A stretch of 64,000 nt of DNA. It comes from Eledone cirrhosa. Its lineage: Eukaryota. A model generated the notes under the pieces. That model searched no databases. It saw only the letters and a list, made by a program, of their open reading frames with translations, and was not told the DNA's origin. The translations under genes were made by a program, and so were the position numbers. Below, one piece after another: positions 17,761-63,074 of this stretch (positions are counted from its first letter, which is position 1; each line of letters opens with the position of its first letter). The DNA lies in assembly GCA_964016885.1 (NCBI GenBank), contig OZ024740.1:407960001-408024000 (forward strand), in the 5' to 3' direction.

Positions 17761-17863
17761 TATATATATATATATATATACGTTATTCCGGGTTGAATCG
17801 GAGGTAACCACAGTAAGTAAGGTACTCAATACATAGCAGAGTATAACAGTTTTAATATAGATG

Positions 17864-17914
17864 AGATTCTACAGGACTAGAACTGTTTCATTCATTAGAA
17901 ATCATCAGGAATCT
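17864..17914 (-). ncRNA. type I hammerhead ribozyme (mirror of 18529-18579)
   Basis: Exact reverse complement of the + motif. Confidence 0.75.
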
Positions 17915-18528
17915 GGGTATCAAAAAATAAATATGGTATTTATAGGTCTCTACAAGTGGTAGGAGAGGGTGGGGAGCGGGATGGGTGCAGGTCATTGGTT
18001 GATAGAAAAGGGAATTCATTAAAAGCTAATTCTACAAAGCTATAGTTAATTTTTATTTTTATTTATATTTATTTATGTTTTTAGAGTAACAAAGGCAGAC
18101 AGAATTCTATAAACAGGTTCCGGATGGCATACCATTCCTTGTCAATAAGTTTCTCTTAAGCTAACAGATGTCTATAAAATCAGTGGGGGGTCAGTCATGC
18201 TCCATAGAATTAAAGAAAAGGAAGATTCTTTAATTCTATGGAGCATGACTGACCCCCCACTGATTTTATAGACATCTGTTAGCTTAAAAGAAACTTATTG
18301 ACAAGGAATGGTATGCCATCCGGAACCTGTCTATAGAATTCTGTCTGCCTTTGTTACTCTAAAAACATAAATAAATATAAATAAAAATAAAAATTAACTA
18401 TAGCTTTGTAGAATTAGCTTTTAATGAATTCCCTTTTCTATCAACCAATGACCTGCACCCATCCCGCTCCCCACCCTCTCCTACCACTTGTAGAGACCTA
18501 TAAATACCATATTTATTTTTTGATACCC

Positions 18529-18579
18529 AGATTCCTGATGATTTCTAATGAATGAAACAGTTCTAGTCCTGTAGAATCT
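18529..18579 (+). ncRNA. type I hammerhead ribozyme
   Basis: Stem I AGAUUC/GAAUCU; core CUGAUGA; short stem II UUC-UAAU-GAA with a U.U first pair; GAAA; stem III ACAG/CUGU; GUA triplet with predicted cleavage after 18573. Confidence 0.78.
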
Positions 18580-59878: not shown

Positions 59879-61223
59879 GTTGTTGTTGTTTAACCCTAGG
59901 TTAGCTTTGATCTATGGCACACAATAAATTGTATTTTACCCCATGATAGTTCTGATCAAGTAAACCTATGTTTAAAAAGCATTCCAGCCTTTCTTGTAAT
60001 TCAGATACACTATAACTTAGATTCCATTATCCAATGTCTCCTCTTTTTTAAGACAGTAGATTGTGATTTGGGGAAGATTTGGCTACTATAAGTAGAGCAA
60101 CTATGTAGTGGCCTCTTTGGCTCATTAGATATTAAGTCAAATGGTTAGGTGCAATCCACATTTGCATTACTTCTGATACACCATACTTCTTCTGAGTGGA
60201 GTACCATTCTGAAAGTGCAGTATGGTAGTCAAAGTATGTTGCTTTTTTTTTCTGAACCATTCAGCATGTTCCTGTATATCTGTTGTTGTGGCTGTTGTTA
60301 TCATTGTTTAATCCAAGATCAGACTTAATCAAATAATTGAAGGTGCTCCTGCCCACTGACTGGTGGACTTGATACTGATAACAGATATTATGGTGGACAA
60401 GGATGTTATACTAATAATAGGTAAGTAGGCTTGATGGAAAAACTAATGGATGCTCTATTAGTTCAAAGTCTTCCATAATCCTGGAGAAAAAGACAAAAGC
60501 TAATTGATATATTTTCCTTGAACATAAAGATGAAATCATCAAAGATGCTCCAATAATATAATGGGTTGAAGTACATTACTTGTTTGTGTCATATAACCAA
60601 TAATTTAGAATGAATTTCTTTTAATCTTATTTTTGTTGTAGACAAGGGAAATATTTTAAGTGTCTTATGAACACCAGACTTTTTGTAATTTCTCCTTATT
60701 AGATTGTAATTTCTTCAGAGGAAATTACTATACAAGTTTTGAAAACACATGGCTAGGTACTAGAATCAATGAAAAAAGTCAGATGAACTATTCACTTCGA
60801 TTTTTGTTATTGTATAAGAGAAAAATACTTTACAATAGATTATTCTAATACAGACATTAATTACAATAAATCAAATCTTTTTCTTCAGCCAATTATTTAA
60901 TGAATTATTTATTTATTGTTCAAATTTTAAATTCTAAAATAACATTTAGTAAATAAAAAAAAAAAAAAAGGAAATAAAAGGAAAGAAAGAATAGGGAAAT
61001 ATAGAAAAAAAAAGAGAGAGGAAAAGAAAAAGAAATGGAAGGGGAGGGCATGGCAAAAGCTCTAATTGCTTAAAAAAATGTTATTTTAAACCTCATTCTG
61101 ACATTAGTTCTATCTTATATTACCATATTAAATCACATGATAAAAACTATATCTAAAACACTAGTACTCTTCTTCAGGTCCAGAAAATACTACAGCTTCG
61201 AACAGTTGCTGACTTTGTACAAG

Positions 61224-61680
61224 TCATCATCATCATAATCATCATTTAACGTCTATCTTCCACGCTAGTATGGGTTAGATGGGAATTGTCCCACTCGAGG
61301 CAAGATTGGTTGGGTGACCGTGTCTCGCCCATATAGGACTGTCTGGCAGGTTTTCTATGGCTGGATGTCCTTTCTAACACCAACCACGTTTACAGTGTGG
61401 ACTGGGAGGTTTTTACCGTGTTACCTACACAACCTCATTTATTTTGGACTGGATGTTGTGGTACCAACATAACTTTACAGAGAGAGGGTGGTGTTGGTGG
61501 GAGTGGGGGTGGAGTAGGGGTAGTGGGATGAGGATGTATATTTGGTTAAGAGGTGCCTACTGACTGTAGGTTTCGCTATGTACATAGGCAAGGCAGGTCT
61601 TCTGTATTACTGCGTAGCGCCAAAGATCTCGGTCCAGTGACATTGTCTTAGAGAGGTGTAAGTGTGTAAGGTCGGAATTT
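61224..61680 (-). mobile_element. 5'-truncated RTE LINE, diverged copy of the 42527 family
   Basis: Reverse complement matches 44490-44970 (NSDLTHLHLSKTMSLDRDLWRY, 3' UTR and GAT tail). Confidence 0.88.
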
Positions 61681-62904
61681 CTTCAGTGAAACTCACAAGA
61701 AGGCTGCTTCCTGCTCTTACATGTAAAATGGTGGTTATTACATATTCAAACATTGTAGCCCACATAAAAGCTCACCATTCACTCTTCTGTTGTTGATAAA
61801 ATAAAAAAATTACCAGTCCAGTAATGGGGTCAGTTCTTTCTTTGAACAATTAGAGGTTTGAAGTTTTTCAACAATACTGTAATATGTCCAGGGCTGGAGT
61901 TAATGGGGGGCGAAGGGGACAATTACTCTGGGGCCCCCTGCAGTGGGGTGGGGGGAACCAGTGATGGCTGTAGCAATTTATTTGTGCCCTCACCTGGGCT
62001 TTTGAGTTTTAGGATGGTTAGAATTTTTGAAATTGATACCTGTATGTATAACTTTTCAATTCCAATTCCTTGTACAAAGCTAACTTTGATTTGTAAAACT
62101 GGAGGGGGGAGGGGGTGCTGTGTATTCTAATTATGTATGTGGGACCCCCCAAGGTCTAGTCCAAAATTTCACTGTCAATGACTTTTTACCTTGTAGCATG
62201 ATATATGTTTACAAGCAGCACAAAATATGATTAGTTAGCTTTATAGTGAGGAATTCAACAGCTAAGATTAACCATTATGATACCAACCTGCTTTAAACTG
62301 CTGCTGATTCTATCAAGAAAATCACTTGTTTTAAATTGTTTAAATCTAAGTCTTTCATTATATATTTTTGCATGAATCATATCTTAAGTTATGATCCAAA
62401 TGCTAACTTAATAATCAAGTTATTTTACTAAATCCCTCAATTTAAAATTTATTATTTTAAGAATTAATTGAAAATAATATGTAATATATTTCATATATTA
62501 TATTAGAAATATGATAGCAAAAGGGTTAATATAGTGCGTTTTCATTATAATGAGGTTTGGCAGAAAACCATCCTCATAAAACATTAAAGTGCTGCAGATA
62601 ACAATAAGATGAGTGTTTGGTGGATGAATAATGAAGCAGGCTTACACAACTAATATCCATATTTACATTGTTTTTGTGGAGGTGGAGGAAGTAACTTTAT
62701 ATGTCAATATGTCAATATGTACATTATTATACAATATTATCTGTCATTTGATACCAAGTTGGCCTTTTGGTTCACTATTCTAACTTATACTGATGATATT
62801 TCATTAGACTGTATCAGAATATTTATAGTAATATCTGTTTATGACTGTAGAGAACAATGTAATATTCATATATATATATATATATATATATATATATATA
62901 TATA

Positions 62905-63074
62905 ACAAAGGAATTGTGGTAAGGAACCAATACTGTGGTAAGGGTACTCAATACTTAGGGTGGGAAATAGGAAAAAGTATGACCCCGACGGCAGAGCTCA
63001 AGCCATTTCGACGGCTATTTCCAGAAATAGCCGTCGAAACGGCTTGAGCTCTGCCGTTGGGGTCATACTTTTTC
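62905..63074. mobile_element. TA-flanked hairpin element, 'gtactcaatac' family, with mirrored half-hammerheads
   Basis: Arms 62971-63021 / 63024-63074; the right arm reads stem-GAAA-CGGC..GCCG-UU-GGGGUC. Confidence 0.8.

Follow-up and report, generated by a model that had tools for sequence, protein, structure and literature searches.

Penelope-like elements (PLEs) of the Hydra clade insert into (TA)n in nearly all of the described families and carry hammerhead ribozymes, and Hydra-1_Obim of Octopus bimaculoides combines a (TA)n preference with a type I hammerhead of short stem III (Craig et al., 2021, PMC8557442). Minimal hammerheads of several families, with low activity and a tendency to work as dimers, have been described in PLE ends (Cervera and de la Pena, 2014, PMC4209133). 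Here, we analyzed a stretch of 64,000 nucleotides from Eledone cirrhosa (assembly GCA_964016885.1, contig OZ024740.1, positions 407,960,001 to 408,024,000 of the forward strand), referred to as the window, in which 11 hammerhead-like motifs of six families, A to F, lie beside TA microsatellites. Families A, B, D, E, and F are, judged from reading frames and motifs, the 3' ends of Hydra-type PLEs, and family C is by the same kind of evidence a tandem retrozyme without an open reading frame (ORF). Most motifs in the window are truncated PLE ends and not independent ribozyme elements. We put the probability of this identity, together with TA targeting, at roughly 0.85.

PLEs have also been named as likely carriers of retrozymes (PMC7229834; Li et al., bioRxiv 10.64898/2026.07.22.740005), so far on the basis of co-occurrence and sequence likeness. 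The one-sided tail of PLEs is documented (PMC3846280). For the Anolis element PAc, which belongs to the Poseidon clade of PLEs, the tail is defined by two internal start sites, cutting and extension take place on both strands, and insertion in vitro does not depend on hammerhead cleavage (Frangieh et al., 2024, PMC11167929). A repeat annotation of O. vulgaris lists 31 recently active Penelope-like families, and the word 'ribozyme' is absent from the portion of it considered here (PMC13282606). An earlier model-made inspection of the window, the sequence-only reading, knew of no family-level description in cephalopods, but Hydra-1_Obim had been published in 2021 (PMC8557442). The class of (TA)n-targeting hammerhead PLEs is mostly known; the features added here are the pairing of two fixed ends, a bulged hairpin, the core of family F and the PLE-type ends of family C. 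Our literature searches found no paper on the pairing rule, the bulged hairpin or the F core.

Hammerhead motifs, Penelope-like reading frames and TA tracts

A type I hammerhead-like arrangement was present at all 11 sites. At the base of stem II, the descriptor tolerated a mismatch or a bulge; a stricter first version recovered only 4 of the 11 sites, and relaxing the stem II base raised this to 10. These ten carried the canonical CUGANGA...GAAA...UH core with stems I to III, at a chance rate of 0.01 matches per window in 100 local first-order Markov shuffles. Families A to E had the full type I core (C3 U4 G5 A6 N7 G8 A9, G12 A13 A14 A15.1, U16.1 H17), H17 being U in families C and E. The eleven complete folds claimed earlier were confirmed for the ten canonical cores and failed for family F. 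The F site (core at 53505, minus strand) has stems I to III and GAAA...UC, but its core reads CCGUCGA, a two-base defect (U4C and A6U), and it was detected solely with a relaxed core.

The division into six families with stem I pairing retained was upheld. Stems I and III vary in sequence between families yet still pair. The claim that the families share little beyond the core did not apply to A and B, which are related through a common stem I (UUUUAU/AUAAAA-type) and common flanks. Stem III was short and (near-)palindromic in nine motifs, as stated before; family D was the exception, with an ordinary stem III of 4 bp and an 8-nt loop. The lowest-energy monomer folds of A and B retained stems I and II, and those of C and E retained stem II; those of D and F are not hammerheads. 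An Rfam scan of the window, suggested before as a check, listed 84 matches at E ≤ 1, mostly microRNA matches driven by microsatellites, and none was to a hammerhead family. Conservation of the core, whose lack the sequence-only reading would have taken as refutation, was found in older A–E copies (below 93% identity, homology-selected and non-independent), with deviations at 19 of 682 core positions versus 531 of 4639 elsewhere. The A–E core is, as far as such copies can tell, under selection between subfamilies.

Family E belongs to an element with its own ORF. Its copies were 99–100% identical, and pairs of E hammerheads 6.2 kb apart surrounded one ORF. The 6.2-kb unit that ends 3' in family E contains an intact ORF of 813 aa counted from Met and an untranslated region (UTR) of 3.6 kb that is rich in microsatellites. 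All 87 scored genomic matches of the ORF were 98–100% identical, and 86 had no internal stop. The protein contains RWR (37), DKT (115), YRDD, CNCRNKTNC (673, CxCX5C), CRLC (771, CxxC), and CNH (799, CxH), as well as a GIY-YIG-type core (IVY..YIG, R..H, E and N motifs) at residues 692–793. The ORF had 117 relatives at E ≤ 0.001, and 107 of them entered the 108-row alignment used for the structure model. The AlphaFold model reached a pLDDT of 86.7 (34.9 from the single sequence), and the closest Foldseek match was TERT (E = 4e-9). A single ORF with a telomerase-related reverse transcriptase (RT), as found in E, is a trait of endonuclease-bearing (EN+) PLEs. This young PLE, whose intact ORFs number in the dozens and whose target, (TA)n, is defined, offers a substrate for reconstituting a relative of telomerase.

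The other families were tied to similar frames (loci are given by L numbers). A 672-aa open frame of family B in L228 showed 43–46% identity to the E ORF and also contained RWR, DKT, and CxCX5C. Hydra-like ORFs adjoined B and F, before and after (L228, L229, L222, and L225), and F both preceded and followed such ORFs in L222 and L225. Family A was located ~850 nt behind the end of a Hydra-like ORF in 11 of 30 loci. The copies were partly tandem, in the manner of pseudo-long terminal repeats, as well as inverted and 5'-truncated, with a tail at one end, which is a PLE trait, and the combination of a (TA)n preference with a hammerhead near the 3' end is a trait of the Hydra clade. The origin from PLEs and retrozymes put forward by the sequence-only reading was borne out in that five families are tied to ORFs with RT and GIY-YIG and the sixth is an ORF-less tandem retrozyme.

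In all fetched loci, 256 of the 265 core-containing, non-internal 3' ends of families A to F adjoined TA, four adjoined (CT)n and five neither; two SINE (short interspersed nuclear element) families used as a control adjoined TA at 9 of 92 ends. An unselected sample of 40 evenly spaced 10-kb loci (399,800 bases) contained 20 canonical hammerheads, and eight shuffles contained none. A TA tract lay within 250 nt downstream of 18 of these 20, versus 22% of random positions (p = 1.7e-10; the matches are non-independent). Both results agree with the earlier view of (TA)n as the landing site. The further claim that every carrier is bounded by TA is correct for 3' ends but not for all 5' ends, as the E copy in the window is joined directly to F. 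Scaled to the genome (3.0 Gb, 1,796 contigs), the sample corresponds to ~150,000 hammerheads, with Poisson limits of 92,000–231,000 that are too narrow because the matches cluster; such a number would match the 126,247 counted in axolotl (PMC7229834). Lower-grade candidate counts from a first look were 818 for A, 1622 for B, 443 for C, 15 for D, 1332 for E, and 2491 for F.

Two fixed 3' ends and a bulged hairpin

Every family ended at either of two sites, S or L, 3' of the predicted cut and 69–137 nt apart in the family references, and 264 of the 265 core-containing, non-internal 3' ends fell at one of them. Same-family mirrored insertions nearly always combined one of each. The first set comprised 59 S+L, three L+L and no S+S (n = 62), and with more loci the numbers rose to 69, three and none (n = 72; p = 1.3e-17 versus one half). 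A 210-bp form of A, with 24 further S+L insertions, was kept out of the count because the query had selected it. A later set of A was S+L in 11 of 11, one being a repeat. When S partners of E were predicted in 20 stretches, eight new pairs were S+L and one was L+L; the rest had no second end in reach. The junction of the 210-bp A form was near-constant, 20 of 25 read junctions being identical, with ATAT microhomology (window 50635–50852, L001–L030, and L216–L221), and many A arms began at one place ~77 nt before the core; an RNA with a fixed 5' end, or a form that mobilizes itself, is conceivable here.

A bulged hairpin, made up of a stem of four pairs, a further pair and a 3' bulge of two bases, started within a few bases of all six S sites and three of the four testable L sites (null 0.7% per 21-nt window). 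The L sites of A and D, which have no tandem copy, were outside the test, and the hairpin at the L site of F was missed by the search pattern, its upper stem being too short, but was visible by eye. Compensatory changes distinguished the families (ACUC/GAGU, GCUC/GAGC, and GUUC/GAAC in the stem, C-G/U-A in the further pair). The hairpin was found in 5 of 27 further clusters, many of which stop before its position or may themselves be chance matches. Unselected loci contained 32 hairpins versus 5–13 in shuffles, and 21 of the 32 lay within 140 nt of TA, versus 17%. By eye, it was also present in three of the six Hydra consensus sequences printed in File S7 of PMC8557442 (Hydra-2_Amil, twice in Hydra-1_Ajap, and Hydra-2_Ajap), with a near miss in Hydra-1_Crog and none at the ends of Hydra-1_Amil and Hydra-1_Obim. 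Taken together, the pairing of S with L and the hairpin yield a concrete model of the PLE tail and of inverted insertions.

In the window, the following features were assigned; cores are those returned by the descriptor:

17760-17779 and 18595-18622: TA tracts around the family D insertion
17781..18594: family D, mirrored (V-shaped) insertion; minus arm with L end at 17781 and core 17908 (-), plus arm with S end at 18594 and core 18535 (+)
17822..17842, minus strand: bulged hairpin of D (ACUC/GAGU, U-A, 2-nt bulge), just 3' of the D S site
28935..29400, plus strand: decayed GIY-YIG fragment of a Hydra-like PLE, adjoining TA at 28906-28933
34994..35508, plus strand: family A copy, inverted 46-nt L arm and longer S arm, TA on both sides; core 35411, predicted cut after 35465
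45518..50518, plus strand: family B, 5'-truncated (ORF end and 3' UTR), S end against TA 50519-50634; core 50420, predicted cut after 50469; a LINE (long interspersed nuclear element) inside at ~45966-49146
50635..51112, plus strand: two family A units of 210-218 bp, inverted 47-nt L arm and S arm; cores 50755 and 51015; TA between them and on both sides
51810..53248, plus strand: family C array, 2.6 units of ~559 bp, L end against TA 53249-53298; cores 51862, 52426, and 52985
52017, 52581, and 53140: bulged hairpins of the C array (GUUC/GAAC)
53375..55589, minus strand: family F element, represented by its 3' UTR and 3' end; S end 53375; core CCGUCGA at 53505
53867..54333, plus strand: family E arm with core 54001 and a cut predicted after 54135; its L end abuts TA 54334-54361
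62904..63074: short fold-back end of a further TA-bounded family, no hammerhead core in this copy

The E arm entered the F copy at a TA stretch inside F and took the place of ~470 bp that F lost; the 5' joint of E to F shows ~2 nt of microhomology and no TA. The TA at the 3' end of F is a short imperfect tract in the window. The joint at 53866 had been considered as a hybrid mirrored insertion made from two RNAs, a candidate that was rejected once the rest of the F copy was found beyond E. Most likely, the cluster at 50.4–55.6 kb was built by new copies landing in TA beside or inside older ones. The decayed fragment at 28935..29400 matched the E ORF (tblastn, E = 5e-10) and was 77% identical to the end of the F ORF.

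Other neighbors were recorded in the window. The TA-bounded fold-back family of 62904–63074 is abundant, and similar ends at 32280–32430, 32446–32600, and 55626–55820 all have the bulged hairpin and lack the hammerhead core. A mirrored TA-bounded element at 35560–36007 is kin to a hammerhead-bearing copy in L007, and a perfect 84-bp palindrome at 34683–34766 has a TA tract at its center. The LINE in the 3' UTR of B (45966–49146, minus strand) has an open 945-aa frame with endonuclease and RT (Pfam Exo_endo_phos and RVT_1). A second, 5'-truncated LINE RT frame (42416–44587, plus strand; 723 aa from stop to stop) begins at a TA tract and contains a PHD-like finger in its C-terminal half. At 56398–58106, a 61-bp unit is repeated 28 times; it adjoins, and in part matches, the LINE 3' end at 46104–46275, inverted.

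A retrozyme, a variant core and the proposed mechanism

Family C consisted of 559-bp units arranged head to tail, as many as 11 to an array, and each unit contained a type I hammerhead. Its longest ORF was 35 aa and its GC content 36%, as in ORF-less tandem retrozymes of low GC (under 45–50%). It possessed both the S and the L end and both hairpins. A search with the C unit listed no RNA data set containing it, which speaks neither for nor against expression. C with the same ends and hairpins therefore gives direct genomic support for PLEs as retrozyme carriers, and C was likely mobilized in trans by Hydra proteins. Units differed by 1.4 changes within an array versus 2.9 between arrays, and changes private to one array occurred. 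In the array of L230, one of seven examined, two variants distinguished by four linked changes alternated in both arms, and the arms began in the same phase. Copying a dimeric circle in rolling fashion would give this pattern; so could gene conversion or linear read-through of an array of this kind. Another tandem hammerhead repeat, of ~310 bp, was observed at L229:301–920.

Family F was marked by its core. Searching with a pattern that accepted either core yielded 661 matches, and the first 100 listed comprised 94 CCGUCGA, four CCGUUGA, one CUGUCGA, and one CUGACGA. The canonical-core pattern gave 18 matches, ten of which were older F-like copies and eight belonged to an outgroup family with covarying stem I. 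The older sister copies of F have the CUGACGA core. Since these sisters and the outgroup keep the canonical core, the double change is likely derived and fixed in the younger, more abundant branch of about 650 copies. U4C and A6C each reduce hammerhead activity (PMC3088659). F is probably slow or dead as a ribozyme, as judged from its core, and yet it went on spreading; activity may be aided by a protein or a partner RNA, and the pattern suggests that self-cleavage may be unnecessary for its spread. F is a natural test of the need for the ribozyme. Lunse et al. reportedly found that small PLE hammerhead variants cleave as dimers, and their work may already list variants at U4 or A6. U4C cores were seen in other families too (CCGAAGA, CCGAUGA, and CCGACGA; L292:4758, L105, and cluster 8). 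Short ends of F sometimes run into (CT)n instead of (TA)n (four of 27 F S ends; L225, L167, L174, L306, and L321).

We propose that a Hydra-type protein would bind its own RNA at two hairpins, a few bases 3' of the start sites, and that its GIY-YIG endonuclease would cut both strands of a TA tract. By means of TA-like microhomology, the telomerase-like RT would then prime at S for one DNA end and at L for the other, and both arms would be copied from one multimeric or circular RNA. The far ends of the two complementary DNAs would join, and most copies would be cut short, leaving hammerhead-bearing stubs. C would borrow this machinery. The hammerheads would process the precursor RNA, as dimers for the types with a palindromic stem III, and cleavage is likely not required for insertion. 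For start sites set by the hairpins and for a single template, the odds appear to us about even. The whole chain, in which Hydra-type enzymes start from the two cut ends at the same time and, via two tandem hairpins, copy a single multimeric or circular RNA, C rides along, and hammerhead catalysis is dispensable in vivo (F having hundreds of copies after the loss of U4 and A6), is a tentative proposal that we rate somewhat below even odds.

The single template was weighed against the origin of the two arms from two separate RNAs, held together by the protein or by a hammerhead dimer. Palindromic stems III permit RNA dimers, and there are four TA-free head-to-head joints between different families (F/E in the window, L118, L183, and L262). 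However, in the window the E arm lies inside a longer F copy and part of the target is deleted, and the four joints, two being S+L, one S+S and one L+L, follow no S/L rule. The arms of one insertion differed by a mean of 0.2–3%, versus 1.3–6% across insertions, depending on the family, with the partner arm strictly closest in 23 of 55, and the arms of L230 are in phase. We consider two RNAs unlikely.

Slightly less likely still is a telomerase-like lengthening of the TA arrays on insertion, which the sequence-only reading had suggested. Perfect TA runs at element ends had a median of 25 nt (n = 232) versus 16 nt in a size-biased background, the RT fold is nearest to TERT, and some ends precede a TA-rich repeat of 0.7–1.5 kb. 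Extension is not established, because the comparison of TA runs is confounded: the background holds old, interrupted and already split tracts, and a preference for long tracts or slippage would yield an equal excess. In addition, the interruptions of long arrays vary between loci of one family.

A view of the motifs as mostly independent retrozymes, in six families with TA targeting in common and apart from autonomous PLEs, is improbable. C fits this account with its tandem ORF-less units, and the 210-bp A form was encountered repeatedly with an identical junction. But A, B, D, E, and F run on into Hydra-like ORFs, full-length ORF-bearing copies already refute it for B, E, and F, and the 210-bp A form joins an inverted L arm to the S arm of its parent, with no TA-free head-to-tail arrays seen. 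Chance matches in AT-rich repeat DNA, which modest folding z-scores, the lack of an Rfam hammerhead match and the D and F folds might favor, are hardly credible given the near-absence of matches in shuffles, the pairing of differing stems I and III and the core conservation in older copies.

Several observations weigh against our interpretation as Hydra-type ends copied from one template. Three L+L insertions violate the S+L pairing, and the similarity of arms might equally stem from gene conversion. Pfam gave no match for the E and B ORFs at E ≤ 0.1, and a PDB sequence search gave none for the E ORF. The GIY-YIG domain of E is a motif-based assignment because the Foldseek list holds only RT-type matches; the GIY-YIG core contains two cysteines in E and one in B, and the Hydra clade reportedly lacks the CCHH there. 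The placement in the Hydra clade follows motifs and a comparison by eye with published sequences. At one locus (L227), D and a fragment of a Hydra-like ORF were found joined between an S end and an L end. C showed no similarity to the E, F, B, and D references, and no protein partner was identified for it. Loci from DNA searches are the best-scoring copies, with a bias to young and complete ones.

Comparison with described systems

The elements share with the Hydra clade (PMC8557442) a single ORF that combines RT with a GIY-YIG domain at its C-terminus, the motifs RW(K/R), DKT, CxCX5C, CxxC, and CxH, a type I hammerhead with a near-palindromic short stem III near the 3' end, the (TA)n target, tandem and inverted copies, and a one-sided tail. 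Compared by eye, the E protein tracks the printed Hydra-1_Obim protein from the N-terminus onward, whereas the hammerhead of that element matches none of the six families'. The E unit, at 6.2 kb, exceeds the published ones, mostly under 3 kb, and the tails are 69–137 nt long here versus 30–40 nt. E is also very young, with many intact ORFs. The strict pairing of S with L, the hairpin and the variant core were not found in the parts of that paper considered.

With the hammerheads of PMC4209133, those of the window have in common the type I topology, a long stem II with an extra 5' base and a small palindromic stem III; the PLEs of that study likewise comprise many families per genome, mainly as single truncated copies, with opposite-strand pairs 100–700 bp apart. 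The core variant described there is U3-A8, and the U4C plus A6U of F was not found in the sections consulted.

Family C resembles the metazoan non-LTR (non-long terminal repeat) retrozymes (PMC7229834; bioRxiv 10.64898/2026.07.22.740005) in that its tandem units lack an ORF and each contain a type I hammerhead, and in its low GC content. Its 559-bp unit is longer than the 150–450 bp of PMC7229834 and lies inside the 51–972 bp of bioRxiv 10.64898/2026.07.22.740005. It differs from the retrozymes of both sources in its PLE-type S and L ends, its hairpin and its TA targeting.

PAc (PMC11167929) has two internal start sites and an AT-rich target, like the present families. Its start sites lie at an AC-rich stem-loop inside the ORF, 30–40 nt apart, with no homology to the target and no strand difference in vitro. 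Unlike those of PAc, the start sites proposed here lie upstream of the ORF and show TA-like microhomology, a bulged hairpin follows each of them, and each would serve one end of the insertion.

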